A DNA stretch of 64,000 nucleotides from positions 1,824,001-1,888,000 of the forward strand of contig CM000150.2 in assembly GCA_000004695.1 (NCBI GenBank). The letters are read 5' to 3'. This document shows, one piece after another, positions 10,440 to 64,000 of the stretch (within the stretch, counting starts at the first letter, position 1; every line of letters begins with the position of its first letter). The stretch is from Dictyostelium discoideum (Eukaryota). The position numbers were made by a program, and so were the translations under genes. The notes beneath the pieces are model-generated. The model worked only from the letters and a program-made list of their open reading frames with translations, made no database searches and was not told where the DNA came from.

Positions 10440-10490
<51 letters not shown>

Positions 10491-10587
10491 GAAAACTGGA
10501 AAACCAATTGATGTTGACTTTTTTTTTTTTTTTTCTAAATGGATGTTGGGTGTGTGTATTTTGGAAAATTTGATTTAAAATTCGGTT

Positions 10588-14131
<3,544 letters not shown>

Positions 14132-17479: not shown

Positions 17480-20500
<3,021 letters not shown>

Positions 20501-25036: not shown

Positions 25037-25101
<65 letters not shown>

Positions 25102-25237
25102 GTTGTATTATTATTTACAGATTCGAGTTCAGTTTGTGTGCTTGTGTCTTGATAAAAGTTTGGTTTTGATATATTATTGTTGTTATTATTATTATTATTA
25201 TTATTATTGTTGCTGTTGTTGTTGTTATTAATATTAC

Positions 25238-25268
<31 letters not shown>

Positions 25269-25681
25269 ATTATTGTTATTGTTATTGTTATTGTAAGAAT
25301 TAGTAGTATGTACAGGAGATTTAAAGGCATAAAGCTTTGAAGGTGATGATAAAGGAGTAGTGAATAAACTATTTGAACTATAATGACCACTTGAAGGCGT
25401 CGATGGGGTTGATATAGCTTTACCAATTATAAAATGTATATGTGAATCAGTTTGTGAAATAGAAATATTATTATTTGTATCTAAATGAGTAATATTAATA
25501 TCTCTATATTTTATACTCCTATTTGATTCTTGGCTACTAATAATATCTTGACTACTATATTTTGTTTGACTATTAATGTAATTATTATGATTATTATGAT
25601 TATTACTACTATTATTATGATTATTACTACTATTATTATTGATATGAATACTATTATTATTATTACTATTACTATTATTTA

Positions 25682-25765
<84 letters not shown>

Positions 25766-26294
25766 TACTATTAGAATTTAATTGACTATTATTTATATCC
25801 TGACTATTAGTTATTTCCTGACTATTACTTATATCTTGACTATTACTTATATCTTGACTATTGGATATCTCTTGGCTACTATATATTTCTTGACTATCAC
25901 TTAAATCTTGGCTACTTAAGCCAAGTGATTTTATAAATTCTTTATAGTAGATACTATTTGTATAAATATTTTGACTTGGAATACTGCCCACAGAGTTTTG
26001 AGATGAGTTGATATTATTATTATTATTATTATTGGTGTTGGTGTTATTATTATTATTATTATTATTAATATTATTGATATTATTATTACTGTTATTAATA
26101 TTATTACTTATATTATTGATATTTTTATTTTTAATATGGTTATTGCTATTATTATTATTATCGTTAAGTGCACCACCATTGGGAACTATAGAATCAGGTG
26201 AATCATATGACGAAAGAGACACGGGTGATATATTTGGTGATGGTGAGGTGTAATTTGGCGAGATTAACGGTGAAATATACGAAGAAGGCATCAT
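22133..26294 (-). CDS. FHA-domain plus tandem-BRCT-domain protein, ~1260 aa, with an MDC1-like domain layout. It has 5 exons: join(24877..26294, 24708..24785, 22874..24615, 22614..22795, 22133..22510). Low-complexity regions include an N-terminal poly-Asn, an (RE/KE)n charged coiled region and a Pro/Thr/Ser/Lys-rich region.
   Basis: The FHA domain spans exons 2-3: FGFIYDPLNRIDYKIQTKNFTIGG|KKDNNIQFRHLNRKTMAVINYESKNLTINNSGEALVYLNGALL...LYSQTYIF. BRCT1 is ...IHGKAFVLSDPIKGK|SVLRDFIIANNGFIVDSLNFSFRGCYVVSDD.... BRCT2 is ...GGSFKNYKEMRGREGAHYCLCLIRPQHELSDRIQKLVTLEWFFDCIKDNKLMDPDTIPEY, with the W..DCI motif. All four junctions use GTAAGT or GTATGT donors and (T)nAG or CACAG acceptors and keep the frame. 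A TACTAAC-like element precedes the acceptor at 24787. Confidence 0.7.
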
Positions 26295-32000: not shown

Positions 32001-32295
32001 ACTAACACTTTGTAACCTTTTTTCACCAAAACTCCAACATTTTCAGGTGTCATTGATACTCTCTTTTCATTTTGATAAACTTCAGTTGGGATACCAATAG
32101 TTAATTGTTCAAATGGAATACCTTTTGCATCTTTTGTTAATTCTAATGCCATATCAATTGATGTTATTCCTTGATTCGGTGTTGTTGGTAATACACTTCC
32201 AGTTTGATCTTTTAATGTACTATAAAATAATCTATTTGTTACATTTCTTTTAATTGAAACTTTTTTTTTATTTTAGTTTTAATAAATAATTAATA

Positions 32296-42296: not shown

Positions 42297-42476
42297 TTAC
42301 TCTTCACTAAAACTTAAAAATTCATCTTCTTCACTTAAACTATAATCATTATCTTCTAAAACAGTATTATCTTCACCCTCTTTATTTATTTTCTTGATTC
42401 TATTACATTCACTCTCACTATAATAATTTTCTTTGTCTTCATGCTCACCCTTGTCACCATCATCTTCATCATCATC

Positions 42477-42521
<45 letters not shown>

Positions 42522-45500
42522 TTCATCCTCGTCTTCGTCTTCGTCCTCATCTTCATCATCATATTCATCTTCAGAATCTGAATGAGGTTGAATTAATCCA
42601 TTTGGATTTAAATAGTCATATTCTTGAATTTGTTGTTCTAAAACACTGATACCTTTGGAATCAATTGAGACCATTGAGTTTATTGAATGAACATATTGAC
42701 AAAATGGACCCCAAGTTCTATCTTTTTTTAAGAGTTTAGAATTACCAATTACAAATAATCCAAATTTAGCTCTTGTGAGTGCGACATTAATACGTCTACG
42801 ATCAGAAAGGAAACCAATTCTTTCGCTTCTTACACACGATAAAATTATGATATCTTTTTCTGAACCTTGAAAACCATCAATTGTTGATGTTTCAATATTT
42901 AATGGATAATTAAACTGTTTATGTTGTTCTTTGATTTCACTCTTTTGTAATTTATATGGCGTAATAATACCAAATGAGAACTTTTTACATTCTGGATAAT
43001 CTTGAACTAACTTTTTAATCAATGTGAATACCATTGTGATTTCTAATTTATTCTTTAATGATCTTTTACCACTTTCTTCTTTTGAATCAATAACATCATA
43101 GAATCTAATTGGACCATATTTGATATCTGAATGGAAATTATGTTGATTGTATACTAATGACTTTACATTATCACCATCTAATAATCTGTCTCTATAGAAT
43201 TGATTTGATGGGAATCTTGAAATTGTTGGATGCATACGATATTGAACATGTAACATTTCAACTGGTAATACTTTTGATAATCTTTCGAATAATGATATAT
43301 TTAAACCATTTTCTGCACTTTCTGTAGAGAAGATAGTTGGTGGTAATTGTAATGGATCACCAACGAGAATTAACTTTTCAATATTACCAATACATAATGG
43401 AATTATTGATGATGGTTCAGTTGATTGAGTTGATTCATCTACTAATATAATATCTGCTCTAAAGTTGTTCTTAACAGTTTCAGAACCACTTCCAGATAGA
43501 GTTGAGAAAACAATGGATGCTCTATAGATACTATCAGATTTCTCACGTTGAGTTTTATTGAAAATTGAAATACTATGACAATCTGGTGATATATTTTCCT
43601 TTTTACCAATACGTACCATATTTGGTAAATAAGGTTTACCATCTAAACCTATTAATTTCTTTTTTGAACATCTCTTTGCAATTTCATCTACTGATGCATG
43701 TGATGGACCACATACTAATATCTTGAATTCTGGATTAATTGCTAATAAAATTGAAAGTAAATAATAAATTGTTGTAGTTTTACCAGTACCTGGTGGACCT
43801 TGAATTAATGTAATACCTTTTGTTGATAATGATGTTTCAATTGAATTAAATTGTGATGTATTCAATTCTTGAATACACATGGATCTCAACAATGATGGAA
43901 TAGCCATTCTCTTTGAGGATAGTATATCGTGGTCTTTTCTTGATGGTTGTAAAATTTGATCAAATAGTATTCCAGAATTTCTAAAATCTTTTATTGCATT
44001 CAACTCTCTAATGAATGTAATGCAATTTGAAACTTTTATAAAGTATAACTTTTCTTTTATAGTATTGGAATCTTTCAAATAGTTTTTATGATTGAATGAA
44101 ATTGAATCAAACATTTCTATTATAGGATCCATTGAATCTGATGAATGAAATTTACATTTTACAATTTGTGTATTCTCTTCTAAATCAACATTTGAACAAT
44201 TGAGTACTAAACCCATTGCAAACATTGGTTCATTGGTATTATCAAATACTTTAAAAAGTAAAACATCATTATAAAATAATTCTTGGGACCCATCATTTAC
44301 ATCAATTTCAAACTTCATAATTGAATAGTCGGATATCTCTTTAAATGAGTGAATTGTTGGTCCATCAATCATCTTAATTTTATCTAAACCTATTAATGTA
44401 CCATCTTTTTCTGATATTGAAACACCTTCAATTTCATCAAATTCACCTGCAAGTTGTTTCCTATATTCCTCCACTATCAAAGGTTTCATTAAATCCATAT
44501 ATTCTTCATGATTTGAGTAACTTGATTTCAAATTTCTAATACTATTCACCTGTATTAATGGAATTCTTTCTGGACTAATCTTTAAAAATATTGATAATAT
44601 TTCGTAAGGACTCTTTAAAAAAACACTAACTAATTCACGAATTAATACAATTTTTAAAAAATTTTCATTATTATTATAATTGTTTTTATTATTATTATTA
44701 TTAAATTTATTATTTGATTTGGTTGTTGTTGTTGTAGTAGTTGTTGGTGTTGTTGTTGGTGTTGGAGTTGGTGTTGATGATGAGTTTATTAAAACCTTTT
44801 CATTTTTAATTAATTGATAAATTTCATTAAATAACAATTTTGAAATTAAGGTTAACCTTTCAGAGTTTAATAATTTAAAAGTTGGAATTTTAATAGCGGA
44901 ACGATTAATTTTTGTTTTAGATTTAAATTTTTTGATAAAACCATCAGAGAATTTACCTCTAATTAAATCTAAAAAGTTTAATTTAGTTTCATTATTTCTC
45001 TCTAATTCTAATTTCAATTGATCTGAATTTATGGGTCTAAAAGTTTTTGTTTTTTCTTTTAACTCTGAAATTTGTGAGAAATGGTTGAATTCTATCATTA
45101 CCATTAATGATAATGATTTTTGATAAATTGAATCAATATTTTCAGTATTTATATTATTTCTTTGAACCATTGAAATATCGTGTATTAATCTAATTTTTAA
45201 AACTTGAATATGCATATTAAATTGATTTTTGTTCTCATCAATTATTTTCTTTACTTGTTCTAATGATGGTTGATAAGATGGATTCAATTTTGATAATGTA
45301 TCCAATTTTCTAAAAATTAAATCTGCACTATTTGAATCTTCAAATATTAAATTTAATAAACTACGTTTCAATGGTTGGTTTATATCAAAAGTGGATGAAC
45401 CACTTTGAGGTGTTGTTGTTGTATGAGTGGTTGCGGTTGTGGTGGTTGTGGTAGGTGAAAGTGAATCTGGTTCAATCACTGATTTAGTTGAGGCAATTTT

Positions 45501-47103
45501 TTGTGGTATTTGTTTTATTGTTGGTTGGGCCTCGTTTGGTTTACCTGGATTTATTGGAGCTGGTAATGACGGTAAAGTTGTTGTTGTAGGAGTGGTTGTG
45601 GTTGTGGTTGTAGTTGTGGTTGTGGTTGTGGTTGTGGTAGGAGAAAGTGAATCCGGTTCAATCACTGATTTAGTTGAGGCAATTGTTTGTGGTATTTGTT
45701 TTATTGTTGGTTGGGCCTCATTTGGTTTACCTGGATTTATTGGAGCTGATAATGATGGTAAACTTGTTGTTGTTGTTGTTGTTGTCGGAGTGGTTGTGGT
45801 GGTGGGTCTTATTGAAGTTGTTGTGTTTGTGGTGGTTATGGTAGGTGAAAGTGAATCGGATCCAATCACTGATTTAGTTGAGGCAACTGTTTGTGGTATT
45901 TGTTTTATTGTTGGCTTGGCTTCATTTGATCTACCTTGATTTATTGGAGCTGAGAATAATGGTAAACTTGTTGCTGTCGTCGACGTTGTTGTTGTTGTTG
46001 TTGTTTTTGTTGTTTTTGGTGCATTTGAATAGATAGTATACTTTTCTGATAAAGATTTTCCTTTTCCTATTAGCTTCATACATTTTTCAAATGATTCACA
46101 AATTTTGATAAAATTTGAATCAATTAAACCATCTAAATACTCTGTAAATCTTAAATCATTGATACGATAATTTTTATTCTTTAAAACTGTTCTAAATTCA
46201 ATTAATTCTTTTTTTAATTTACTTGGAAAAATACATTTTTCAATATCTAAAAACGATATTGGCATTTCAAATTGTACAGAAGTTTCTATTTCAATTCTAC
46301 CTCTAATTTTTTGTATTCTATTTGATGTTAATCTTTTAAAAAAAAAACTAAACTCGATTAAAAAATTTAAATTACTATAATCACTATATAATTGATATAT
46401 ATTTCTTTTAATTATATCATCTTCATCTTCATCTTCACCTTCATCTTCATCTTCATCTTCATCTTTATTATTATTATTATTATTATAATATAATAAATCA
46501 TTTCTTTGAAAAAATGTAGGAAATTTAGAAGAGACATGAATTGAAGCTGTATATTTGACATTGTTGATTTTACGTAATAAAAAGAATTTTGATGAGGATT
46601 TAAGTAATACTTCTTGAATTTTACTTTGAAAAGTTGGAAAATAATTTTCAATATCCTCTAAACTATCTATTAATATTGATGAGTTTATAGTTTCAGTGGT
46701 AATTTGAGGTGTTGGTGATAAATTAATTGTTTCATTTAATTGAGTTAATAATACTCCAAGTTTTGGGTAAAGTGATTTTATATAATTTGAAACTGTTTGA
46801 TTTGGAAGAGGCAATGAGAAATCTGGAATCATATATGATTCTGTTTTATTTGTAGGAGTGAAAATATATGGTTTTGAAATTAAATTTGGATCAAAAGTAC
46901 CAATTTTTTTAAATTTTATTGAAATTCCACTTGATTTTAAATGATTTTTAAAGTCATTTATAGAATTTTTTTTTGAACTTTTTGTTTGTGAAAAATGATT
47001 CTTTAATAAATGTATTTGATAATGTACATTAAATTTTATAATGGTTTGAAATTTGATAAATTTATTAAAAAAATCACTTGATAAAATTAAATGCTCACTA
47101 ACT

Positions 47104-47198
<95 letters not shown>

Positions 47199-47670
47199 TA
47201 AAAAATTATTCTTTATTTCTTTTAATAATTTTTTTTTTAATTTTTCAATCAGAGTAGTAAAAAAATCATCTTCCAAAGCTTCAATTATAAATTCTAGTTG
47301 ATCTACACATGTTGGAAATTGGACTTTTAATTGTTTAATTGTTTCTAATTGTTTTTTGGGGTTATTACATTCTTTAAATATTAATTTTATTAGATTATTA
47401 TTATTATTATCATCATTATTATCATCATTATTATTATTATTATTATTACTATTATTATTACTATTATTATTATTGTTATTATTATTATTAATGGTATTTG
47501 TCGATGATAATTCAGATTGCGTTGGATTTATTAATGACAAAGAAGGTGACAGATTTTTGCTTTCACTAGAAAAATTAAATGAGAGTTAGAAAAATGGCAA
47601 AAAAAAAAAAAAAAAAAAAAAAATATCTAATATCAATATTTTACTCTTCTGTTTTTAAAATAGAACCCAT
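42297..47670 (-). CDS. Copy 1 of a tandem paralogous family: a large UPF1/MOV10-like SF1 helicase protein. The CDS is join(47645..47670, 42297..47565). It has an Asn-rich N-terminus, the shared N-terminal module, 3 x ~57-aa Thr/Pro-rich tandem repeats, a C-terminal helicase core and an acidic poly-Asp/Glu tail. It has NO nucleotidyltransferase domain.
   Basis: Helicase motifs were read directly: GPPGTGKT (I), VCGPSHASVDE (Ia), LVDESTQ (II), VGDPLQLPPT (III), YRMHP (IV), DGFQGSEKDIIILSCVRS (V), VALTRAKFGLFVIG (VI). The short first exon ATGGGTTCTATTTTAAAAACAGAAGA|GTAAAAT and the acceptor TTTTCTAG| at 47566-47567 restore the frame (MGSILKTED-ESKNLSPSLSLINPTQ...). The TTG 'start' at 47540 in the ORF track is internal. 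Confidence 0.75.
45430..45950. repeat. Three tandem copies of a ~175-bp coding repeat inside helicase copy 1. They encode SLPSLSAPINPGKPNEAQPTIKQIPQTIASTKSVIEPDSLSPT + poly-Thr.
   Basis: Near-identical peptide and DNA repeats were read in the 42297..47540 ORF. They are mirrored in the antisense ORF 45427..45939. Confidence 0.8.
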
Positions 47671-48332
47671 ATTTTTTTTTGTGTAGGTGATAATAAAAAA
47701 AAAAAAAAAAAAAAAAAAAATTAAAAAACAATACAATAATATATCCAATTATATACAATTATATATACAATGGTTTTATTTGTTGTGTTGAATTTTTAAA
47801 ATAAAAAATAAAAAAATTTTCAAATACGAATCAAAATTTGGGTTTTAAAAAAAAGAAAATTCAAAAAAAAAAAAAAAAAATCAAAAAAAATTAAATTAAA
47901 AATCCGATTAAGTACGATTTAAAATAAAAAAAAAAAAAATAAATAATAAAATGAAATAATATAAAAAAAAATAATAAAATAAAATTATAAAAAAGAAAAA
48001 ATTTGTATCATTTATTTTAAAATAAAAGAATAAAAAAAATTAATTTAAAACTTTACTTTTTTTTTTTTTTATTACTAAAATAAATGGACAATTTAAAAAA
48101 AAAAAAAAAAATAAAAAAAATTTTAAAAAATGGAAAAATTTTGATTTGTCGTCCCCAAAAAAAAATCAAAGAGAAAAAGAAAAAAAAATAAAAAAAAAAA
48201 AAATTTGGTTATTTTTTTTTATTTTTTTTTTTTTTATATAAATAGATATTTTCAATTGTGTTTATAAAAAAAGAGTTAAAATGAGTTTAGGGACATTAGT
48301 TTTAAAAAAAAAAAACGTAGGTAAAATTGGTG

Positions 48333-48690
48333 GATTTAATGACTGAAGGAAATGAATTACCATATTAACTAAACAGAATGAACTAAATGTTTTCTCTGCT
48401 GCATTATTTAAATCTTTTGAGATTGCCCACCATTTTACTAATAATGCTAAATCTATACATCTATTATCAATTGAACAATATTCACCTAACAATAATGAAT
48501 TGTGATAACTAATCATTGAATTAAAACACATATCGAAATGAATACCTGATGATATCTCTTTGAATCTAATGATTGGTATTTTTGCATCCATTCTTTTTTC
48601 AATTAATTTATATTGTTGAGATCTATTTAAGTATTTATAAACTTGTTTTAAATAAGTTGTATCTTCCTTTTGAATACATGAAAATATATC
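48333..48690 (-). pseudogene. Pseudogene fragment. It is a partial copy of the nucleotidyltransferase/PAP-associated region of copies 2 and 3 (KQVYKYLNRSQ.YKLIEKR..AKIPIIRFKEISSGIHFDMCFNSM.SYHNSLLLGEYCSIDNRCIDLALLVKWWAISKDLNNAAEKTFSSFCLVNMVIHFLQSLNPPILP). Homology ends abruptly at both ends.
   Basis: The nucleotide and protein sequence is near-identical to 49853..50215 of copy 2. Homology breaks at 48332. Downstream the ORF runs into unrelated sequence (…TFFFFKTNVPKLILTLFL*). Confidence 0.8.
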
Positions 48691-48840
48691 ACCAGATTGT
48701 CATCGTATATCTCTTTTTGATAAAACACTAGCACAAAGAAAAGAAATTCTTAAGAATGCAAATATTGTTTTCTCAACATTATCAGCAAGTGGTTCTGGTC
48801 CTGTTAGAAGTAACTTTAAAGCAAATATTGTACATGCACA
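48691..48840 (+). pseudogene. Pseudogene fragment in INVERTED (plus) orientation. It is a partial copy of the helicase motif Ia-II region (CHRISLFDKTPAQRKEILRNANIVFSTLSASGSGPVRSNFKANIV). It abuts the NTase fragment.
   Basis: The plus-strand translation matches the minus-strand-encoded copy 2/3 sequence CHRISPYDKTPAQRKEIIRNANIVFSTLSASGSGSVRSNFKANIV. The junction with the NTase fragment at ~48690 is direct. Confidence 0.75.
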
Positions 48841-49354: not shown

Positions 49355-52300
49355 CTAAGAAAGTAATCCATTTGACGATAATGATAAATTCTCTTTGAAT
49401 AAATCATTAATTGTTGTTTTGGTTGATCTTAAAGAATATTCCATCATTGTGAATTCCATTAATACTCTTTGGTATGTTTTTTTAATTGATGATGCTAAAT
49501 TTCTATCATTAATAAATGGATCAAGTACAATGATATGACCTTTTACTGGTGTACCCTTTATAGTTGATCTTTTTAATAATGCTCCATTTTCACATAAACT
49601 ACCACCACCACTTGAGTGACTAATTGATATGATATTCTCTTTATAATTAAATGTTGAATAATAATAAAAGAATTGATAAAACAATTGAGCGATTGTCAAT
49701 TTGTTTCTTTTTGGTTCAAATTTGTTAAAACTTGACCAATCATAATATTTAACTAAATAATTTTCTACGATTGTTTGTGATTTTAATTTAATTAAATTTC
49801 TATCTGTTGAATACTTTTCTAATAGTTGATTTGATGTTGTTTGTAAATTTGGTAAAATTGGTGGATTTAATGACTGAAGGAAATGAATTACCATATTAAC
49901 TAAACAGAATGAACTAAATGTTTTCTCTGCTGCATTATTTAAATCTTTTGAAACTGCCCACCATTTTACTAATAATGCTAAATCTCTACATCTTTTATCA
50001 ATTGAACAATATTCACCTAACAATAATGAATTGTGATAACTCATCATAGAATGAAAGCACATATCGAAATGAATACCTGATGATATCTCTTTGAATCTAA
50101 TGATTGGTACTTTTGCACTAATTCTTTTTTCAATTAATTTATATAGTTGAGATCTATTTAAATATTTATAAACTTGTTTTAAATGAGTTGTATCTTCTTT
50201 TTGAGTACTTGAGAAATTAATATCTAAATCACTATCATTCAATGATAATCCACTCAAGAATGAACCATATAAATTAATTGATGCTGTTGCGAAACCTTCT
50301 GATATTAATTTCTTTAATCTATTATAACTATCTTGTTTAATTGATTTCTTTTTACATTCAATTTTTGAAATAATTTCATTAAGAGAATTATTTGTTTTTG
50401 ATGATGATAAAGATTGTGAAATTTCTTGTATTTCTAAATTATTTAAAACTTTCTTTAAATATGAATCCAAGAGACGTGAATATTTAACAAAACTATCTCT
50501 TAATGTTTTCTTTTTTGATAAAGTTGATTGATCTATTTTTTCTTGATTTGATTTTTGTAATTCTATAATAATATTAATAAGAGTGTTTGGAAAATCTTTA
50601 TCAATGATTAAATTATTTGAATCTGGTGAAACTGTCTCATCTTCATCATCATCATCGCTGATACTATAATATTCATCATCATCATCATCCAAATCATCAT
50701 TATCTTCACCTTCTTGATTAATTTTCTTGATTCTATTACTTTCATCATCTTCATCATGCTCTTGTATTTCTTCATTATCTTCATCTTCGTCTTCCTCTTC
50801 ATCTTTACCATCATATTCATCTTCAGAATCTGAATGGAATTCAATTAATCCATTTGGATTTAAAGAGTCATATTCTTGAATTTGTTGTTCTAAAACACTG
50901 ATACCTTTAGAATCAATTGAGACCATTGAGTTTATTGAATGAACATATTGACAAAATGGACCCCAAGTTCTATCTTTTTTTAAGAGTTTAGAATTACCAA
51001 TTACAAATAATCCAAATTTAGCTCTTGTGAGTGCGACATTAATACGTCTACGATCAGAAAGGAAACCAATTCTTTCACTTCTTACACATGATAAAATTAT
51101 AATATCTTTTTCTGAGCCTTGAACCCCATCAATTGTTGATGTTTCAATATTTAATGGATAATTAAACTGTTTATGTTGTTCTTTGATTTCACTCTTTTGT
51201 AATTTATATGGCGTAATAATACCAAATGAGAACTTTTTACATTCTGGATAATCTTGAACTAACTTTTTAATCAATGTGAATACCATTGTGATTTCTAATT
51301 TATTCTTTAATGATCTTTTACCACTTTCTTCTTTTGAATCAATAACATCATAGAATCTAATTGGACCATATTTGATATCAGAATGGAAATTATGTTGATT
51401 GTATACTAATGACTTTACATTATCACCATCTAATAATCTGTCTTTATAGAATTGATTTGATGGGAATCTTGAAATTGTTGGATGCATACGATATTGTGTA
51501 TTTAACATTTCAACTGGTAATACTTTTGATAATCTTTCAAATAATGATATATTTAAACCATTTTCTGCACTTCCTGATGAGAAAATAGTTGGTGGTAATT
51601 GTAATGGATCACCAACAAGAATTAACTTTTCAATATTACCAATACATAATGGAATTAGTGAAGCTGGTTCAGATGATTGAGTTGATTCATCTACTAATAC
51701 AATATTTGCTTTAAAGTTACTTCTAACAGAACCAGAACCACTTGCTGAAAGAGTTGAGAAAACAATATTTGCATTTCTAATAATTTCTTTTCTTTGTGCT
51801 GGTGTTTTGTCATAGGGTGATATACGATGACAATCTGGTGATATATTTTGAAGTTTACCAATACGTACCATATTTGGTAAATAAGGTTTACCATCTACAT
51901 TTATTAAACTCTTTTTTAAACATCTCTTTGCAACTTCATCTACTGATGCATGTGATGGACCACATACTAATATCTTGAATTTTGGATTAATTGCTAATAA
52001 AATTGAAAGTAAATAATAAATTGTTGTAGTTTTACCAGTACCTGGTGGACCTTGAATTAATGTAATACCTTTTTTTGATAATGATGTTTCAATTGCATTA
52101 AATTGTGATGCATTCAATTCTTGAATACAAATGGATCTTAACAATGATGGAATCTCCATTCTCATTGATGTCATTAAATTATAAACTTCCAATGATGGTT
52201 GTAAAATTTGATTTAAAAGTGTTTTTGAATTTTTAAACTCTTCTGTTGCTTCTAATTCTCTAATGAATGTAGTACTATTAGAAACCTTTATAAAATGTAA

Positions 52301-55300
52301 AATATCTTTTGAATATCTTTTCGAATTCAATGAAACTGAATAAAACTTTTCAATTAATGGTTTCGTTGAATCCGATAATACAAATTCGCAAATTATTTTT
52401 TGTTTTTTACTTTTTAATTCTGAAGATCTTGTAACTAAACTCAATGCAAACATTGGTTTATTTGTATGATCAAATGCTTTAAAAAGTAAAATATCATTAA
52501 GGTATATTTCCTCTAATTCATCCTTAACTTTAATATTAAATGTAATTTCAACAGAATCCTCCGACAACTCTTGGAATGAATGAATTGTTGGTGTATCATT
52601 CATTTTAACTCTATCTAAACCTATTAATGTACCATCTTGTTCTGATATTGAAATACCTTCAATTTCATCAAAATCACCTTCGAGTTGTGCTCTATATTCT
52701 TCTACTATTAAAGGTTTCATTAAATTTACAAATTCTGATTGGTCAGAATAACTATCTTGTAATGAATGAATATTATCAGCTTGAATTAATGGAATTCTTT
52801 CTGGATTACTCTTTAAAAATATTGACAATATCTCTTCAGAATCTTTTGAAATTACTTCAACATGATCACGAACTAAAACAACTTTTCTATTATTATTATT
52901 GTTATTTCTTGATCTTATTGTAGTTGTTGCAGTTGCTGTTCCTGTTGGGGATTTGATAAACAACTTTTCACTTTTAATTAATTGGTGAATTTCATTAAAT
53001 TGTAACTTTGAAATTAAACCTAACTTTTCAGAGTTTAATAATTTAAAAGATGGAATCTTTAAAGTTGAACCATTGATTTTTGTTGTTGATTCAAAGTTAC
53101 TGACGAGATTATCAAAGAATTTACCTTTAACTATATTTGAAAATTCTAACTTCGTTCTATTTTTTTTTGCTAATTCTGAATTCAACTGATTGTATTTGTG
53201 TCTACAAGTCTTTGTTTTTTCTTTTAATTCTGAATACTGTGAGAAATGATTAAACTCTAATAATACCATTAATGATAATGACTTGTTATATATTTTTTCA
53301 ATATTTTGATTGCTTGTATTATTTTTTTGAATCTTTGAAATATCTGTTTTTAATCTATTTTTAATAGCATTAATAGTTGAATTAAATTGAGTTATACTCT
53401 CATTGATAATATCATTCACTTGTTCAATTGATTTTTTCTTTGATGGATATGATTTAAATAATCTATCCAATGTTTTAATAATTGAATCTGCACTAGTTGA
53501 ATCTTCAAATATTAATTTCAATAAACTATGTTTCAATGATTGGTTTATATCAAATGTAGTAGTAGCAGCACTAGTATTATTAGAAGCAGATGATGCTGTA
53601 GTTGATTTATCTGTTGATGTTGTTGCAGAGGTATTTGCAGTGGTTGAGGTTGTTGTTGTTGTTGTTTTTGTTGTAGCTTTATCTTTTATAATACTAGTGG
53701 TAGTTGAAGCTGTAGGTGTTTTTGAACTTGTTGTATTAGATATTTTTTGTGAATTTGAAAGTGATAAATCTTTATAATCTAATACTAAAGATTTTATATG
53801 AATTATAAAAGATTTTATTAAAGTTCCAATTGTATTATCACTTTCATTTTTATGACCAAGTGGTAATTTAAATAATTCTACATTCATCACATATTCAGTT
53901 TTTTTAGATTTAATATTTAATTTTACTTGTTCTGGAATATAGTTTGAAATGTCTATTGATTTTTGATCAATAAATGCTTCAACTTTAATACAAAATCTTT
54001 GGTGGTGAGTATTCAATAAATTGAATGCCTCTGATCTAGAATCCAAAAAGGTTGGTGAGTTTTTAACTGTGAAATTTTTATCAAAATATTCTTTAATATA
54101 ATTTCTTTGCACTAAATTACTAAATTCAATTAATGAAATGATTGTAAAAATTGTTTCATTAATTTCATTAAATTTTGATGGATTTACACTTGATTTTAAT
54201 AATTTTCTTATATCTTTTGATGTACCAATTCTATAAGATTCAGTCTTTTTTTTGAATGGTAAAACTATGTCTTTTACCATTGATTTAATTGAATCTATTT
54301 GTAAATTAAATGTTGGATATTGATTCTTTAAACTATCAATTGCTTCTGGTTTGTTAAAAAATGTATTAAATAATGAAAATATTTGTTTTTCAATATTTGA
54401 TGGTGTCTTCAAAATTACTGTTGGTATATTTGATAATAATTCTTTTGGTGTTGATGTTGGTGTTGGTGTTGGTGTTGGTGTTGGTGTTGGTGTTGGTGTT
54501 GGTGTTGGTGTTGGTGTTGGTGTTGGTGTTGGTGTTGGAGTTGGAGTTGGAGTTGGAGTTGGTGTTGGTGTTGGTGTTGGTGTTGGTGTTAGTGTTGGTA
54601 TTGGTTGTGTTGTTGTTGTTGAGTTTGATAAAAGTTGATAATCTAAAATTAAAGATTTTATATAAATCAAATGTGATTCGATTAATGTTCCAATGGTATT
54701 ACTTTCGATATTCTTGTGACCAAGTTCTAATTTAAATAAACCAATATTAAATAAAACTTTTTTAGAATCTAATTCTAACTTCAATGGTTTTGGAACAAAT
54801 TTTGAAACAAAAGATGGATTTTGACTAATAAATTCCTCTAGATTGATTTTTGATTTTTGATATTGAGTTTCCAATAAACCAAAAGCCTCTAATTGTAAAC
54901 TTGCTTGGTGTGTGATTTTGACTATATTTTTTTCAATATATTTTTTAACACTACTTCTTTGGATTAGATTACTCAACTCTATTAATGAAATGATTGTAAC
55001 AAATATTGTTACAATTTCATCAAACTTTTTTGAATTTATCTTTGAATTCAATGATTTTTTAAGTTGATTTAATGTTGTAATTTTCACTGAATCAATATTG
55101 GTTTGACTTTCTTTTATAAAAGTTTCAACTGATAATAATTCTGATTTAAAACCTGGGTATTTTTTAATCAAACCTTGAATATCTTCTGATCTGTGGAATA
55201 ATTTATTAAAAATTGAAAAAACTACGATTTCAGTAGTTGTTGGTTTTGTTTGTTGTTGGCTATTTATAACTTTTGATACCAATGATGGTGATGTTGCTAA

Positions 55301-56273
55301 TGGTACTGTTGGTGGTGATACAGTTGTTGTTGTTGTTGCTAATGACACTGCTGGTGGTGTTATATCAATAACTGATGTAGATGATATTTTCTGTTCTATT
55401 GTAGTTGTACCTAAACATTTATTATATAATTTACAAAGGTTGATAAAGTTTGATTGAATTGAAATTGATATATCTTGAGAATCTGAAAATTTTAAATAAT
55501 TTATTTTATAATTTTTACCCTTTAAAATAAATTTGAAATCATTTGAAATTTGACGAAATTTTGATGGATAATTACATTTGAAAACCTCTGATAATGTTAT
55601 TGTTATATTTTGAGCTGACAATTGATCATAAAGCCTTTGTTTTTGATCAGCTGTGATTGATGTATCATCTGTAAATAATTTCTTTAAAATTAATCTTTGA
55701 TATAAAAAACTAAATTCAATCATAATTTTCAATGCTATAAAATCATTATAAATTTGAAAAATATCGTTATTATTATTATTACGATTGATATTATTTAATA
55801 AATTTGTTTTTTTAACTAATTTACTAAATTTATCAGAGACATCTATTGAAGAAGATGTTTTAATAATTCCAATTTTATTCTCTAAAGAAGTTTTATCATT
55901 TTCTAAAATTTCTTTAATTTTCTTAATATCGAAATTTGGAAATAATTTACAAACACCATTAATTCCATTTATGATATCTTTTAAATTACTATGCTTGAAT
56001 ATAGTTTTAAAAATATCATTTTCATTACTATTTATAATTTGTGAATTTTCAGTAATATTCAATTTGTTCATATTATTTATTATTGAATCCATTGTACTAT
56101 TGGTGTTAGTGTTGGTAGTGGTAGTGGTACTGGTGGTGGTAGTGGTACTGGTGGTGCTCGATTCTACAGTTGTTTTTGTTTTTTCTGGTACGCTTTGAGA
56201 AATTGGATTGTTATTATTTGATGAAGGTGGTGGTGGTGGTGGTGGTGAAGTTGATGAATTTGGAATATTTTCC

Positions 56274-57041: not shown

Positions 57042-60000
57042 TTAAGAAAGTAATCCATTTGACGATAATGATAAATTCTCTTTGAATAAATCATTAATTG
57101 TTGATTTGGTTGATCTTAAAGAATATTCCATCATTATGAATTCCATTAATACTCTTTGGTATGTTTTTTTAATTGATGATGCTAAATTTCTATCATTAAT
57201 AAATGGATCAAGTACAATGATATGGTCTCTTACAGCTCTACTCCTTATATTTGATCTTTTTAATAATGCTCCATTTTCACATAAACTACCACCACCACTT
57301 GAGTGACTAATTGATATGATATTCTCTTTATAATTAAATGTTGAATAATAATAAAAGAATTGATAAAACAATTGAGCGATTGTCAATTTGTTTCTTTTTG
57401 GTTCAAATTTGTTAAAACTTGACCAATCATAATATTTAACTAAATAATTTTCTACGATTGTTTGTGATTTTAATTTAATTAAATTTCTATTTGTTGAATA
57501 CTTTTCTAAGAGTTGATTTGATGTTGTTTGTAAATTTGGTAAAATTGGTGGATTTAATGATTGAAGGAAATGGATTACCATATTAACTAAACAGAATGAA
57601 CTAAATGTTTTCTCTGCTGCATTATTTAAATCTTTTGAAACTGCCCACCATTTTACTAATAATACTAAATCTCTACTTCTATTATCGATTGAACAATATT
57701 CGCCTAACAATAATGAATTGTGATAACTCATCATTGAATTAAAACACATATCGAAATGAACACCTGATGATATCTCTTTGAATCTAATGATAGGTACTTT
57801 TGCATCCGTTCTTTTTTCAATTAATTTATATAGTTGAGATCTATTTAAATATTTATAAACTTGTTTTAAATGAGTTGTATCTTCTTTTTGAGTACTTGAG
57901 AAATTAATATCTAAATCACTATCATTCAATGATAATCCACTCAAGAATGAACCATATAAATTAATTGATGCTGTTGCGAAACCTTCTGATATTAATTTCT
58001 TTAATCTATTATAACTATCTTGTTTAATTGATTTCTTTTTACATTCAATTTTTGAAATAATTTCATTAAGAGATTTATTTATATTTGATGAGGATGATGA
58101 TAAAGATTGTGAAATTTCTTGTATTTCTAAATTATTTAAAACTTTCTTTAAATATGGATCCAAGAAACGTGAGTGTTTTATAAAATTATCTCTTAATTTT
58201 TTCTTTTTTGATAAAGTTGATTGATCTATTTTTTCTTGATTTGATTTTTGTAATTCTATAATAATATTAATGAGAGCATTTGGAAAATCTTTATCAATGA
58301 CTAAATTATTTGTATCAAATACTTCTTCATCTTCATCATACTCTTCGCTGATACTATGATATTCTTCATCACCATGCTCATTATCATCATCATCATCATC
58401 CTCCAAATCATCATTATCTTCACCTTCTTGATTAATTTTCTTGATTCTATTACTTTCATCATCTTCATCATGCTCTTGTATTTCTTCATTATCTTCATCT
58501 TCGTCTTCCTCTTCATCTTCACTATCATCATAGTCATCTTCAGAATCTGAATGGAATTCAATTAATCCATTTGGATTTAAAGAGTCATATTCTTGAATTT
58601 GTTGTTCTAAAACACTGATACCTTTAGAATCAATTGAGACCATTGAGTTTATTGAATGAACATATTGGCAAAATGGACCCCAAGTTCTATCTTTTTTTAA
58701 GAGTTTAGAATTACCAATTACAAATAATCCAAATTTAGCTCTTGTGAGTGCGACATTAATACGTCTACGATCAGAAAGGAAACCAATTCTTTCGCTTCTT
58801 ACACACGATAAAATTATGATATCTTTTTCTGAACCTTGAACTCCATCAATTGTTGATGTTTCAATATTTAATGGATAGTTAAACTGTTTATGTTGTTCTT
58901 TGATTTCACTCTTTTGTAATTTGTATGGTGTAATAATACCAAATGAGAACTTTTTACATTCTGGATAATCTTGAACTAACTTTTTAATCAATGTAAATAC
59001 CATTGTGATTTCTAATTTATTCTTTAATGATCTTTTACCACTTTCTTCTTTTGAATCAATAACATCATAGAATCTAATTGGACCATATTTGATATCTGAA
59101 TGGAAATTATGTTGATTGTATACTAATGACTTTACATTATCACCATCTAATAATCTGTCTTTATAGAATTGATTTGATGGGAATCTTGAAATTGTTGGAT
59201 GCATACGATATTGTGTATTTAACATTTCAACAGGTAATACTTTTGATAATCTTTCAAATAATGATATATTTAAACCATTTTTTGCACTTTCTGATGAGAA
59301 AATAGTTGGTGGTAATTGTAATGGATCACCAACAAGAATTAACTTTTCAATATTACCAATACATAATGGAATTAGTGAAGCTGGTTCAGATGATTGAGTT
59401 GATTCATCTACTAATACAATATTTGCTTTAAAGTTACTTCTTATTGGTTTAGAACCACTTGCTGATAGAGTTGCGAAAATAATAGTTGCATTTCTAATAA
59501 TTGCTTTTCTTTGTGCTGGTGTTTTATCAAAAAGTGATATACGATGACAATCTGGTGATATATTTTGAAGTTTACCAATACGTACCATATTTGGTAAATA
59601 AGGTTTACCATCTATATTAACTAAACTCTTTTTCAAACATCTCTTTGCAACTTCATCTACTGATGCATGTGATGGACCACATACTAATATCTTGAATTTT
59701 GGGTTAATTGCTAATAAAATTGAAAGTAAATAATAAATTGTTGTAGTTTTACCAGTACCTGGTGGACCTTGAATTAATGTAATACCTTTTGTTGATAATG
59801 ATGTTTCAACTGCACTAAATTGTGATGTATTCAATTCTTGAATACACATGGATCTCAACAATGATGGAATCTCCATTCTCATTGATGTCATTAAATTATA
59901 AACTTCCAATGATGGTTGTAAAATTTGATTTAAAAGTGTTTTTGAATTTTTAAATATTTCCGGTGCTTCTAATTCTCTAATAAATGTAGTACTATTAGAA

Positions 60001-63000
60001 ACCTTTATAAAATGTAAAATATCTTTTGAAGTTTTCGAATTCAACGAAACTGAATAAAACTTTTCAATTAATGGTTTCGTTGAATCCGATAATACAAATT
60101 CGCAAATAATTATTTGTTTTTTACCCTTTAAAACTGAATTTGATGTTACTAACCCCAATGCAAACATTGGTTTACTAGTATGATCAAATGTTTTAAAAAG
60201 TAAAATATCATTAAGGTATATTTCCTCTAATTCATCCTTAACCTTAATATTAAATTTAATTGCAACCAAATCCTCTGACAACTCTCGGAATGAATGAATT
60301 GTTGGTGTATCATTCATCTTAACTCTATCTAAACCTATTAATGTACCATCTTGCTCTGAAATTGAAACACCTTCAATTTCATTAAAATCACCTTCGAGTT
60401 GTGCTCTATATTCTTCTACTATTAAAGGTTTCATTAAATTTACAAATTCTGATTGGTCAGAATAACTATCTTGTAATGAATGAATATTATCAGCTTGAAT
60501 TAATGGAATTCTTTCTGGACTACTCTTTAAAAATATTGATAATATCTCTTCAGAATCTTTTGAAATTACTTCAACATGATCACGAACTAAAACAACTTTT
60601 CCATTATTATTATTATTATTATTACTATTATTGTTATTTCTTGATCTTATTGTAGTTGTTCCTGTTGAGGAGTTGACAAACAACTTTTCACTTTTAATTA
60701 ATTGATAAATTTCATTAAATTGTAACTTTGAAATTAAACCTAACTTTTCAGAATTTAATAATTTAAAAGATGGAATCTTTAAAGTTGAACCATTGATTTT
60801 TGTTGTTGATTCAAAGTTACTGACGAGATTATCAAAGAATTTACCTTTAACTATATCTGAAAATTCTAATTTCATTTTATTATTTTTTGCTAATTCTGAA
60901 TTCAATTGATTGAGGTATTGTCTACAAGTCTTTGTTTTTTCTCTTAATTCTGAATACTGTGAGAAATGATTAAACTCTAATAATACCATTAATGATAATG
61001 ACTTGTTATATATTTTTTCAATATTTTGATTGCTTGTATTATTTTTTTGAATCTTTGAAAAATCTGTTTTTAATCTATGTTTAATACCATTAATATTTGT
61101 ATTAAATTGAATTTTACTCTCATTGATTATATTCCTAACTTGTTTAATTGATTCTTTGTTATAAGGATGTGATTGTGATAATCTATCCAATGTTTTAATA
61201 ATTGAATCTGCACTATTAGAATCTTCAAATATTAATTTCAATAAACTATGTTTCAATGAATGGTCATTCTCAAATGTTGTAGTAGTATTATTATTAGAAC
61301 TAGGTGATGGTACTATTGATATTTGTGATGTTGTTGTTGGTGATGGTGCTGTTGTTGTAGCTTTATCTTTTATAATACTAATGGTAGCTGAAGCTGTGGG
61401 TGTTGTTGAACTTGTTGTATTAGATATTTTTTGTGAATTTGAAAGTGATAAATCTTTATAATCCAACACTAAAGATTTTATATAAATAATAAAAGATTTT
61501 ATTAAAGTTCCAATTGTATTATCACTTTGATTTTTATGACCAAGTGGTAATTTAAATAACTCTACATTCATCGTATATTCAGTTTTTTTAGATTTAGATT
61601 TAATATTTAATTCTACTTGTTCTGGAATATAGTTTAAAATATCTATTGATTTTTGATCAATAAATGCTTCAACTTTAATACAAAATCTTTGGTGGTGAAT
61701 ATTCAATAAATTGAATGCCTCTAATTTAAAATTCAAAATATCTTGTGAGTTTTCAACTGTGAAATTTTTATCAAAATATTCTTTAATATAATTTCTTTGA
61801 GAAAGATTACTAAATTCAATTAATGAAATGATTGTAAAAATTGTTTCATTAATTTCATTAAACTTTGATGGATTTACACTTGATATTAATAATTCCTGTA
61901 CAGCTTTTGATGTATTGTTTTTATGAAATTCAATCTTTCTTTTGAATAATGAAATTATATCCTTAGTCGCTGATTTAATTAAACCAATTTGTAAATTAAA
62001 TGCTGGATATTGATTCTTTAAACTATCAATTTCCTCTGGTTTATTAAAAAATGTATTAAATAATGAAAATATTTGTTTTTCAATATTTGATGGTTTCTTC
62101 AAAATTACTGTTGGTATATTTGATAATAACTCTTTTGGTGTTGTTGGTGTTGGTGTTGGTATTGGTGTTGGTGTTGGTGTTGATGTTGGTGTTGGAGTTG
62201 GAGTTGATGTTGGTGTTGGTGTTGATGTTGGTGTTGGTGTTGATGTTGACGTTGGAGTTGTGATTGTTGGTGGTGGTACTGGTACTGGTACTGGTTTTAT
62301 TTCTGTTGGTGATGCTGTTGTTGTAGTTGTTGAGTCTGATAAAAGTTGATAATCTAAAATTAAAGATTTTATATAAATCAAATGTGATCCGATTAATTGT
62401 CCAATGGTATTACTATCGTTATTTTTGTGACCAATTTGTAATTTAAATAAATCAATGTTAAATAAAACTTTTTCAGATTTTAATTCTAATTTCGATGGTA
62501 CTGGAACGAAATCTAAAACATTAGATGATATAGTTTGACTAATGAGTTTTTCTAAATCAATTTTTAAACTTTGATGTTGAATTTCTAATAAATTGAAAAG
62601 CGATGGATGTATTCTCTTTGGATTGGGTAAATGTTTTTTAAGAGTAATTCTTTGGTAAAGATTACTAAACTCTATTAATAAAACGATAGTAACTAGTGTA
62701 GTTTTAATTTCTTCAAATTTTATAAAGTTAATCTTTGAATCCAATGATTTTTTAAGTTGATTTAATGTTGTAATTTTCACTGAATCTATGATACTTTGAA
62801 ATGATGTTTGGTTTTCTTTTATAATTGTTTCAACTGATAATAATTCAAATTCAAAGATTGAGTGTTTTTTAATCAAATCTTGAATACCTTCTAATTTGTA
62901 GAAAATTTTATAAAAAATTGAAAAAACTATGATTTCAGTAGTTGTTGGTTCCATTGTGAATATTGTTGATGATGATGATGATTCCACTGTTGGTGATTTT

Positions 63001-64000
63001 GTTGATGATGTTGATGGTTTTGGTAATGCTGTTGGTGATGGTGTTGGTGATGGTTTTGGTAATGCTGTTGATGGTGTTGTTGGTAATGCTGTTGTTGGTA
63101 ATGGTGTTGATGGTTTTGGTAATGGTGTTGGTGATGGTGTTGGTAATGCTGTTGATGCTGATTTTGTTGATGTTGTTGATGGTGTTGGTTTTGTTAATGG
63201 TGTTGATGGTGATTTTGATGCTGTTGTTGTTGATGCTGTTGTCGTTGGTAATGGTGTTGATGATGACTTTGTTGATGGTGTTGGTAATGCTTTTGTTGGT
63301 AATGGTGAAGCTATACCTAAACATTTATTATATAATTTACAAAGGTTGATAAAGTTTGACTGAATTGAAATTGATATATCTTGAGAATCTGAAAATTTTA
63401 AATTTTTTATTCTATAATATTTACCCTTTAAAACAAAATTGAAATCATTTGAAATTTGATGAAAACTAGGTGGGTTATTACATTTGAAAACCTCTGGTAA
63501 TGTTATTGTTCTATTTTGAGCTGACAATTGATCATAAAGTTTTTGTTTTTCATCAGCTGTGATTGATTTATCACCTGTAAACAATTTCTTTAAAATTAAT
63601 CTTTGATATAAAAAACTAAATTCAATCATAACTTTCAATGCTATAAAATCATTGTAAATTTGAAAAATATCATTGTTATTATTATTATTATAATTATTAT
63701 TAGGATTGATATTATTATTATTTAATAAATCTTTTTTTTGAACTAAATTTCTAAATTTATCAGATATTTCTTTTGATGCTATATTTTCAGTATATTCAAT
63801 TTTATTCCCTAAAGAAGTTTGATTGCTTTTTAAAATTTCTTTAATATAATTAATATCAAAACTTGGGAATAATTTAGAAACATAATCAGTTTCATTTATG
63901 ATATCTTTTAAATTACTATGTCTGAATATAGTTTTAAAAATATCAAATTCACCACCACTATTTATAATTTGTGAATTTTTAGTAATATTCAATTGGTTCA
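57042..64000 (-). CDS. Copy 3, with the same helicase + terminal nucleotidyltransferase fusion architecture as copy 2. It is 5'-partial: the N-terminus and first exon lie beyond the window end.
   Basis: The ORF stays open to the window edge. The TTG 'start' at 63992 is an artefact. The upstream in-frame sequence ...NQLNITKNSQIINSGGEFDIFKTIFRHSNLKDIIN aligns with MNKLNITENSQIINSNENDIFKTIFKHSNLKDIIN of copy 2. The helicase motifs and the NTase motifs (INLYGSFLSGLSLNDSDLDINF, FDMCF, LVKWWAVSKDLNNAAEKTFSSFCLVNMVIHFLQ) are conserved. The 3' ~1.6 kb, including the 3' flank to ~56940, is near-identical to copy 2. Confidence 0.75.
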   Translation of the reverse strand, partial: NQLNITKNSQIINSGGEFDIFKTIFRHSNLKDIINETDYVSKLFPSFDINYIKEILKSNQTSLGNKIEYTENIASKEISDKFRNLVQKKDLLNNNNINPNNNYNNNNNNDIFQIYNDFIALKVMIEFSFLYQRLILKKLFTGDKSITADEKQKLYDQLSAQNRTITLPEVFKCNNPPSFHQISNDFNFVLKGKYYRIKNLKFSDSQDISISIQSNFINLCKLYNKCLGIASPLPTKALPTPSTKSSSTPLPTTTASTTTASKSPSTPLTKPTPSTTSTKSASTALPTPSPTPLPKPSTPLPTTALPTTPSTALPKPSPTPSPTALPKPSTSSTKSPTVESSSSSTIFTMEPTTTEIIVFSIFYKIFYKLEGIQDLIKKHSIFEFELLSVETIIKENQTSFQSIIDSVKITTLNQLKKSLDSKINFIKFEEIKTTLVTIVLLIEFSNLYQRITLKKHLPNPKRIHPSLFNLLEIQHQSLKIDLEKLISQTISSNVLDFVPVPSKLELKSEKVLFNIDLFKLQIGHKNNDSNTIGQLIGSHLIYIKSLILDYQLLSDSTTTTTASPTEIKPVPVPVPPPTITTPTSTSTPTPTSTPTPTSTPTPTPTSTPTPTPIPTPTPTTPKELLSNIPTVILKKPSNIEKQIFSLFNTFFNKPEEIDSLKNQYPAFNLQIGLIKSATKDIISLFKRKIEFHKNNTSKAVQELLISSVNPSKFNEINETIFTIISLIEFSNLSQRNYIKEYFDKNFTVENSQDILNFKLEAFNLLNIHHQRFCIKVEAFIDQKSIDILNYIPEQVELNIKSKSKKTEYTMNVELFKLPLGHKNQSDNTIGTLIKSFIIYIKSLVLDYKDLSLSNSQKISNTTSSTTPTASATISIIKDKATTTAPSPTTTSQISIVPSPSSNNNTTTTFENDHSLKHSLLKLIFEDSNSADSIIKTLDRLSQSHPYNKESIKQVRNIINESKIQFNTNINGIKHRLKTDFSKIQKNNTSNQNIEKIYNKSLSLMVLLEFNHFSQYSELREKTKTCRQYLNQLNSELAKNNKMKLEFSDIVKGKFFDNLVSNFESTTKINGSTLKIPSFKLLNSEKLGLISKLQFNEIYQLIKSEKLFVNSSTGTTTIRSRNNNNSNNNNNNNGKVVLVRDHVEVISKDSEEILSIFLKSSPERIPLIQADNIHSLQDSYSDQSEFVNLMKPLIVEEYRAQLEGDFNEIEGVSISEQDGTLIGLDRVKMNDTPTIHSFRELSEDLVAIKFNIKVKDELEEIYLNDILLFKTFDHTSKPMFALGLVTSNSVLKGKKQIIICEFVLSDSTKPLIEKFYSVSLNSKTSKDILHFIKVSNSTTFIRELEAPEIFKNSKTLLNQILQPSLEVYNLMTSMRMEIPSLLRSMCIQELNTSQFSAVETSLSTKGITLIQGPPGTGKTTTIYYLLSILLAINPKFKILVCGPSHASVDEVAKRCLKKSLVNIDGKPYLPNMVRIGKLQNISPDCHRISLFDKTPAQRKAIIRNATIIFATLSASGSKPIRSNFKANIVLVDESTQSSEPASLIPLCIGNIEKLILVGDPLQLPPTIFSSESAKNGLNISLFERLSKVLPVEMLNTQYRMHPTISRFPSNQFYKDRLLDGDNVKSLVYNQHNFHSDIKYGPIRFYDVIDSKEESGKRSLKNKLEITMVFTLIKKLVQDYPECKKFSFGIITPYKLQKSEIKEQHKQFNYPLNIETSTIDGVQGSEKDIIILSCVRSERIGFLSDRRRINVALTRAKFGLFVIGNSKLLKKDRTWGPFCQYVHSINSMVSIDSKGISVLEQQIQEYDSLNPNGLIEFHSDSEDDYDDSEDEEEDEDEDNEEIQEHDEDDESNRIKKINQEGEDNDDLEDDDDDDNEHGDEEYHSISEEYDEDEEVFDTNNLVIDKDFPNALINIIIELQKSNQEKIDQSTLSKKKKLRDNFIKHSRFLDPYLKKVLNNLEIQEISQSLSSSSSNINKSLNEIISKIECKKKSIKQDSYNRLKKLISEGFATASINLYGSFLSGLSLNDSDLDINFSSTQKEDTTHLKQVYKYLNRSQLYKLIEKRTDAKVPIIRFKEISSGVHFDMCFNSMMSYHNSLLLGEYCSIDNRSRDLVLLVKWWAVSKDLNNAAEKTFSSFCLVNMVIHFLQSLNPPILPNLQTTSNQLLEKYSTNRNLIKLKSQTIVENYLVKYYDWSSFNKFEPKRNKLTIAQLFYQFFYYYSTFNYKENIISISHSSGGGSLCENGALLKRSNIRSRAVRDHIIVLDPFINDRNLASSIKKTYQRVLMEFIMMEYSLRSTKSTINDLFKENLSLSSNGLLS

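Follow-up and report, generated by a model that had tools for sequence, protein, structure and literature searches.

A tandem array of an orphan ~200-residue module ahead of a Sen1/Upf1-like helicase and a nucleotidyltransferase in Dictyostelium

Here, we describe three tandem open reading frames (ORFs), c1, c2 and c3, found in the ORF map of a 64-kb window of Dictyostelium discoideum DNA (contig CM000150.2, positions 1,824,001 to 1,888,000; the window is the whole stretch that was analysed) and all encoded on its minus strand. Four copies of one autonomous domain of ~200 aa almost certainly make up the N-terminal ~1050 aa of both c2 and c3, by homology as well as by fold. In c2, these four homologous modules, M1 to M4, are followed by a Sen1/Upf1-like superfamily 1 (SF1) helicase and then by a Cid1-type nucleotidyltransferase (NTase). 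The array of c3 has the same M1-M2-M3-M4 composition and also precedes a helicase and an NTase, and c1 has an array of three modules, M0-M1(degenerate)-M4, followed by a helicase only. The module is an orphan domain family without a detectable relative among the described domains compared in Pfam, PDB and BFVD.

Homology and fold of the modules

An earlier note on this DNA had proposed four related ~200-aa modules in c2, the same arrangement in c3 and a partial one in c1. We scanned the three proteins with a profile hidden Markov model (HMM) trained on 13 modules of Dictyostelium purpureum only, with zero window sequence. On c2, this independent HMM finds exactly four full-length modules in register (aa 20-225, 294-490, 566-791 and 850-1047; the corresponding independent E-values, iE, are given in Table 1) and on c3 it finds four modules as well, as had been proposed. 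In c1, an array is indeed present; it consists of M0 (iE 1e-11), M4 (1e-28) and a degenerate M1, and M0 is a module type of c1 that has no counterpart in c2 and c3. The M1 of c1 reaches an iE of 4.7e-25 when it is itself part of the profile, but the D. purpureum-only HMM gives it no better than 0.12. Also recovered were two D. purpureum modules (iE 1e-14 and 1e-25) that do not belong to the training set. In total, the family comprises 30 modules from three species, in arrays of 3, 4, 7 or 8 and in gene models with or without a helicase; the comparison across dictyostelids that the earlier note had called for thus gives 3 to 8 modules per array. The unit occurs in differing numbers and settings, and a profile that contains none of the query sequence recognises it; on these grounds, it qualifies as a new family. 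In a module HMM scan of the window ORFs, the module was absent from every ORF other than these three.

The repeat can also be seen within c2. When its N-terminal 1070 aa were compared with themselves by hhalign, a self-alignment that had been suggested as a check, off-diagonal matches appeared at shifts of one (E 6e-63), two (1e-8) and three modules (3e-4), with a repeat period of ~270 aa, linker included. Profile-profile comparison of the three module types gave colinear matches (P 5e-6 to 3e-4). By BLASTP, M2 and M3 are 42% identical (E 9e-50), and the other pairs give E-values of 4e-5 (M1-M4), 5e-4 (M3-M4), 6e-3 (M2-M4) and 0.13 (M1-M2); taken by pairs, the similarity appears decisive for M2-M3 only, moderate for M1-M4 and M3-M4, and weak for M1-M2. 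A shuffle test ranks the pairs in the same order (z of 43 for M2-M3, 8.1 for M1-M4, 5.7 for M3-M4, 4.0 for M2-M4 and 2.5-2.9 for M1-M2/M3). The low scores of M1-M2 and M1-M3 would be in line with repeats that only mirror the K/N/I/S-rich composition of an AT-rich genome (the GC content of the window is about 0.14-0.36). However, the D. purpureum profile matches all four modules full-length and in register, the hhalign off-diagonals are colinear, the ratios of non-synonymous to synonymous substitution rates (dN/dS) of the modules are below 1 and the AlphaFold2 models are confident, so that we consider a composition artefact as already refuted and its residual probability as negligible.

The modules of c2 lie at 52949-56032. 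They had been placed at 51700-56100, which includes them; the remaining part, 51700-52948, comprises the junction and the 1B/stalk region and runs into the beginning of the helicase. The first example of a module start in the earlier note (DIFQIYNDF...) was misplaced, as it falls in the middle of M1, which begins at aa ~23 (DIFKTIFKHS...). Similarly, the ending FKL.LGHKN...TIG.LI.S.IIYIKSL.LDY that had been assigned to every module holds for M2 and M3 but not for M1 and M4, and the common core is just h.I..FKL.....I..hI. From the 30 modules, we derived the signature hh..IF......I...h..h....P.h...h..hK ... hh..hh.h..hhEF..h.QR..LK ... L ... F ... h.I..FKL.....I..hI...h..h..Lh, or in its short family-wide form IF...P...hhEFxxhxQRxxLK...IPxFKL. 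Three of its positions are each found in at least 90% of the modules, namely F in 'IF', E in 'EF' and Q in 'QR'.

AlphaFold2 models of M3 and M4, computed from overlapping shallow alignments of 10-11 paralogous modules, are mostly helical, in agreement with the helical nature first proposed, and share an identical order of elements. The N-terminal elements are three short helices, a ~20-residue helix and a ~35-residue central helix that carries the EF..QR motif; they are followed by a further helix, a short helix, a beta-hairpin with the IPxFKL motif and a long C-terminal helix. The module is thus predicted to be a closed bundle of helices packed about a single very long one in the centre (IEFxxxxQR), completed by a beta-hairpin and a closing helix.

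As had also been noticed, the modules are separated by low-complexity linkers, either (PT)n or more generally P/T/S-rich, which are encoded by low-complexity tandem DNA repeats. Longer repeat arrays occur in the linker DNA of c3 (62988-63307), and a poly-N/T linker is read in the c2 translation between M4 and the conserved junction that precedes the helicase. The M1-M4 linker of c1 (45439-46013, minus strand) contains a 186-nt x 3 tandem repeat with a unit of ~62 aa (…SLPSLSAPINPGKPNEAQPTIKQIPQTIASTKSVIEPDSLSPTTTT…) that c2 and c3 lack.

The absence of a known domain, which the earlier note had reported, stands at the sensitivity of the Pfam, PDB and BFVD comparisons made here, which gave no convincing match. 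The first 1300 aa of c2 have zero Pfam-A matches at E <= 0.1 (2025 Pfam copy). When 24 modules were scanned singly against Pfam-A at E <= 1, no family matched more than one module, and the best match was 9e-4 (Med9, one module). A search of PDB with the module sequence profile gave a best E of 0.047, phmmer with the entire N-terminus matched only P/T-rich low complexity, and Foldseek of the module against PDB and BFVD gave no match better than E 0.5 and TM 0.3. The SEN1_N and ARM/HEAT Pfam models have no match in the module region, and the UPF1_Zn_bind model has none in c2, where aa 1-1320 are devoid of Cys/His clusters. We found nothing relevant in the literature on a Dictyostelium helicase-nucleotidyltransferase or on its N-terminal repeats. 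A very divergent member of a described family that escaped searches at the level of HMMER and PDB is a conceivable explanation of these results: the comparisons covered Pfam, PDB and BFVD, and helical bundles are hard to classify. We nevertheless hold it to be very unlikely.

Enzyme domains, constraint and feature positions

The helicase of c2 is recognised by Pfam as AAA_11 (1.4e-43) and AAA_12 (2.2e-59), and by phmmer its core is closest, among solved structures in PDB, to Sen1 (7.6e-69) and Upf1 (2.4e-62). The translation contains the Walker A (GPPGTGKT), DExx (VDESTQ) and motif VI (RRINVALTRAK) sequences. The NTase matches MTPAP-like_central (6e-19), TUTase (2e-8) and PAP_assoc (3e-8), and its GS...DxD and third Asp motifs are read as YGSFLSGLSLNDSDLDI and HFDM. 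In the translation, both c2 enzymes have their catalytic motifs intact. The region ahead of the helicase is 40% identical to its D. purpureum counterpart (E 7e-58), and its score with the 24-module HMM is -8.5. Within it, aa 1083-1144 of c2 had been considered as a fifth, partial module at the junction (iE 0.05 with the D. purpureum-only HMM); with the same -8.5 score of the 24-module HMM, this candidate was rejected and the segment was assigned to the conserved pre-helicase region common with D. purpureum.

Constraint was estimated by the Nei-Gojobori method between c2 and its orthologue in Dictyostelium citrinum. The dN/dS values are 0.57 for M1, 0.44 for M3 and 0.42 for M4, to be compared with 0.26 for the pre-helicase region, 0.13 for the helicase and 0.22 for the NTase, and with 0.57, 1.10 and 2.31 for the three linkers. 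By these ratios, the modules are under purifying selection, with a constraint two- to four-fold weaker than that of the enzymes, and the linker sequences are essentially unconstrained. For linker 1-2, dN/dS exceeds 1 and the copies align poorly with one another.

Table 1. Positions of the genes, modules, linkers and enzyme domains. Coordinates are those of the window, except for D. purpureum, where they are those of locus L001 (GL871136.1:10875-36646)
Feature	Position	Strand	Evidence or remark
ORF c1	42297-47540	(-)	1747 aa
ORF c2	49355-56092	(-)	2245 aa
ORF c3	57042-63992	(-)	extends past window edge
c2 module M1, aa 23-230	55403..56026	(-)	D. purpureum-only HMM iE 3.5e-29; 24-module HMM iE 3e-49
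c2 linker 1-2, S/T/P-rich low complexity	55241..55402	(-)	translation; 42-nt x2 repeat 55274-55359
c2 module M2, aa 285-489, diverged M3 duplicate	54626..55240	(-)	D. purpureum-only HMM iE 1.8e-15; 42% identity to M3
c2 linker 2-3, (PT)n	54398..54625	(-)	TRF: 54445-54621, period 6, 29.5 copies
c2 module M3, aa 566-777	53762..54397	(-)	D. purpureum-only HMM iE 1.5e-19; AlphaFold2 pLDDT 82.6, pTM 0.82
c2 linker 3-4, T/S/A-rich	53537..53761	(-)	translation
c2 module M4, aa 853-1048, helicase-proximal	52949..53536	(-)	D. purpureum-only HMM iE 3.6e-29; AlphaFold2 pLDDT 81.5, pTM 0.83
c2 junction and stalk/1B-barrel region, aa ~1071-1324, non-module	52121..52882	(-)	D. purpureum match; phmmer Upf1 alignment begins here
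c2 Sen1/Upf1-like SF1B helicase core, aa 1325-1702	50987..52120	(-)	Pfam and PDB matches
c2 Cid1-family nucleotidyltransferase, aa 1905-2196	49505..50380	(-)	Pfam; motifs in translation
c3 module M1	63309..63956	(-)	module HMMs
c3 module M2	62337..62945	(-)	module HMMs
c3 module M3	61446..62087	(-)	module HMMs
c3 module M4	60669..61256	(-)	module HMMs
c1 module M0, broken by poly-N run	46719..47402	(-)	D. purpureum-only HMM iE 1e-11, hmm positions 2-204
c1 module M1, degenerate, acidic insertion	46068..46691	(-)	33% identity to c2 M1
c1 module M4	44781..45371	(-)	HMM iE 1.4e-28; 59% identity to c2 M4
D. citrinum 2294-aa orthologue			M1-M1'-M3-M4; aligns with c2 through helicase and NTase regions (92% and 86% identity)
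D. purpureum XP_003289907	L001 10001-15772		7 modules; gene model without helicase
D. purpureum adjacent 3376-aa gene	L001 16514-25772		8 modules; helicase

Several other genes of the window were annotated from Pfam, all on the minus strand: an FNIP-repeat protein gene (336-1394), a Dictyostelium STAT gene (Dict-STAT-coil, STATa_Ig and EF-hand_12; 10772-14131) and an NAD(P) transhydrogenase gene (29009-32152). The gene with the Dict-STAT coiled-coil and STATa_Ig domains and the FNIP-repeat gene are Dictyostelium-specific. Four large ORFs of the window have no Pfam match (4319-7081, 17873-20497, 22866-24569 and 24876-26294).

Arrays and gene cluster across species

The closest relatives of the genes studied here are found in D. 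citrinum and D. purpureum. When 1.84 billion representatives were searched exhaustively with a profile made from the window modules only, XP_003289907 / F0ZR66 of D. purpureum (7 matched stretches, E 6e-60) and a D. citrinum fragment were recovered. Neither the window proteins, nor the D. citrinum orthologue, nor the 3376-aa D. purpureum protein appeared among the matches, and the library therefore seems to lack their cluster. The third match of this search, a 578-aa protein (P0003, E 1.5e-7), was rejected as a family member: its E-value is spurious, being reached by summation of eight stretches of ~25 residues, of 3-8 bits each, that match a short 'DIDKGLDHLKKKYP' peptide repeat and fall to ~0 bits with the D. 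purpureum-only profile. This protein is secreted-looking and has 8 copies of a ~55-aa repeat with 'FLNQSDIDKGLDHLKKKYPNVDW', which mimics the 'F.N....ID.L...YP' of the module N-terminus.

Compared with M1, M1, M3 and M4 of c2, the four modules of the D. citrinum gene show 72, 69, 69 and 72% identity, respectively, and its M1 and M1' copies are 78% identical to each other. By module comparison, no orthologue of M2 was found in the D. citrinum gene. Since M2 and M3 are so far diverged, at just 42% identity, their duplication is older than the split from D. citrinum, and it follows that in the latter M2 was lost and M1 was duplicated. An M4-type module stands next to the helicase in every D. discoideum-group copy; M4 is also the best conserved module between species, and the final D. 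purpureum module is nearest to it (28-31% identity). Altogether, these comparisons show that arrays are remodelled between close species and that the module is a mobile unit.

Some features of the D. purpureum locus were noted in addition. Upstream of XP_003289907 there is the C-terminal end of another helicase-NTase gene. XP_003289907 itself could be either one gene with its 8-module neighbour or a module-only protein, and the 3376-aa gene seems, judged by length, to leave too little room after its helicase for an NTase. The pre-helicase region (L001 ORF 20746-25770, aa ~1040-1180) carries a Tyr-rich decapeptide repeat of ~13 copies, 'GxYIEGYYNxx', that is unrelated to the module, as well as (PT)n and 'FAQAIKQVINDT' repeats; none of these occurs in the window copies.

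The gene cluster itself is subject to rapid birth-and-death, as indicated by an NTase fragment in the window, by the lack of an NTase in c1 and by a decayed gene copy in D. citrinum. The NTase fragment (48313-48744, minus strand) is 80.7% identical to aa 1944-2083 of c2; it lies in the interval that separates c2 from c1, overlaps a 109-aa ORF (48262-48591) and seems to be what is left of a fourth copy that decayed, or of a rearrangement. In c1, the helicase is immediately followed by a closing acidic tail, and no NTase-like sequence was found by tblastn downstream of the helicase. In D. citrinum (JBTAPL010000041.1:2638910-2660171), KAN0034489 and nearby short ORFs, at 9905-11262 of this locus, are frame-broken module pieces (M1 C-terminus and M4 N-terminus) directly upstream of the intact four-module gene, and they represent a tandem copy that has decayed and yet carries a gene annotation. 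The helicase of c1 is 89% identical to that of c2 with a synonymous divergence (dS) of 0.12, against 0.45-0.54 in the pre-helicase region and M4 and 0.87 in M1. This difference suggests that the helicase part of c1 was gene-converted among paralogues of different ages.

Possible roles of the array

As a whole, our best reading, which could equally turn out right or wrong, is that of an orphan-domain array acting as a multivalent docking platform for a helicase-tailing enzyme. The docking step taken separately, in which the array would pick ribonucleoprotein (RNP) substrates, is a tentative proposal whose chances we put somewhat below even. Held on flexible tethers, several binding domains that are similar yet not identical would bring the enzyme to particular RNP substrates. 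The helicase (a 5′-3′ RNA helicase) could then strip the RNA or move along it, and the NTase could tail the RNA 3′ end, for decay or for small-RNA pathways. M4, the conserved unit, is probably also the ancestral one, and it may contact the enzyme. The distal modules, which are duplicated, lost and quick to diverge, fit fast-changing ligands, for instance RNPs of selfish elements or others involved in conflict; their fast divergence could also be read as relaxed constraint.

Several observations weigh against this docking platform. The docking role, like the RNA- or protein-binding platform suggested in the earlier note, is argued from architecture and evolutionary pattern only. The dN/dS of the modules is below 1 throughout and positive selection is not demonstrated. 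The models of M3 and M4 were built on alignments of only 10-11 paralogues, the conserved positions are chiefly those of the hydrophobic core, and the few conserved polar residues (E, Q, R and K of the central helix) could be structural. RNA binding can no longer be argued from charge: the window modules are mildly basic (pI 8.5-9.8, except c1 M1 at 5.0), but those of D. purpureum span pI 4.8-9.8 and the proteome is Lys-rich anyway, so that this argument was dropped. Finally, the family is provisionally restricted to D. discoideum-group species, a range that may be underestimated.

Two other roles can be proposed for the same architecture. As a self-assembly scaffold, the bundles would bind each other within or between molecules and, together with the disordered linkers, would drive the formation of oligomers or of RNA-granule-like condensates that concentrate the enzyme; we regard this as rather unlikely. 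As a cis-regulatory domain, at least M4 would pack on the helicase and gate its ATPase or RNA clamp, in the manner of the Upf1 CH domain, with the distal modules as dispensable duplicates. Upf1-like helicases as a rule have regulatory domains at their N-terminus. In line with such a role, M4 is the sole type that D. citrinum and all three window genes have kept, it is the type to which the final D. purpureum module comes nearest, and its dN/dS is among the lowest of the modules. However, the poly-N/T linker parts M4 from the conserved junction, and 3-8 modules held under purifying selection would be left unexplained; we find cis-regulation improbable.

Among the closest known systems, the N-terminal domain of Sen1/senataxin and the ARM-like domains of Aquarius and ZNFX1 are likewise large, mostly helical, non-catalytic and N-terminal to a Sen1/Upf1-type core. 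Such N-terminal helical accessory regions of Upf1-like SF1B helicases are generally thought to recruit partners or substrates. Where a SEN1_N or ARM/HEAT region would be expected to form a continuous alpha-solenoid of ~40-aa repeats, the modules described here are discrete ~200-aa bundles with a beta-hairpin, joined by disordered linkers and variable in number. The CH domain of Upf1 is also N-terminal to an Upf1-like helicase and is regulatory and partner-binding, but it is a Cys/His zinc-knuckle domain, whereas the modules are helical with almost no Cys or His. Tandem helical-bundle arrays of the talin rod / THATCH type are also counted among the closest systems. The array is a further case of non-catalytic accessory arrays on Upf1-like helicases, with a module family that is itself undescribed. 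For the enzymes, the same pairing is known from the RDRC of Schizosaccharomyces pombe (Hrr1 helicase and Cid12 nucleotidyltransferase) and from other helicase/TUTase partnerships; here, it is fused in one polypeptide. The pairing of an SF1 RNA helicase with a Cid1-family nucleotidyltransferase in RDRC is a functional analogy. Unlike in RDRC, no RdRP is linked here, and RDRC components have nothing like the module array.

A more specific version of the docking platform would be a lineage-specific, RNA-based genome-defence enzyme in which the modules serve as fast-turnover target-recognition domains, each type for a different selfish-element or pathogen RNP, and in which the tethered helicase-TUTase unwinds and tails the RNA for destruction or small-RNA production. 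We consider this speculative and improbable; if true, an RNA-surveillance enzyme would follow a modular 'receptor array' logic that evolves through the birth and death of modules and genes.

The module is a new domain with a clear signature and a confident predicted model, carried by a rare single-chain helicase and terminal nucleotidyltransferase in a model organism that is amenable to genetics. Should the array not select substrates, it would be one more lineage-specific orphan domain, of limited general reach, that helps to annotate 'hypothetical proteins' of D. discoideum, D. citrinum and D. purpureum. If it does, it would provide a handle on the targeting of RNA 3′-tailing and helicase activities, and on fast gene duplication and decay.

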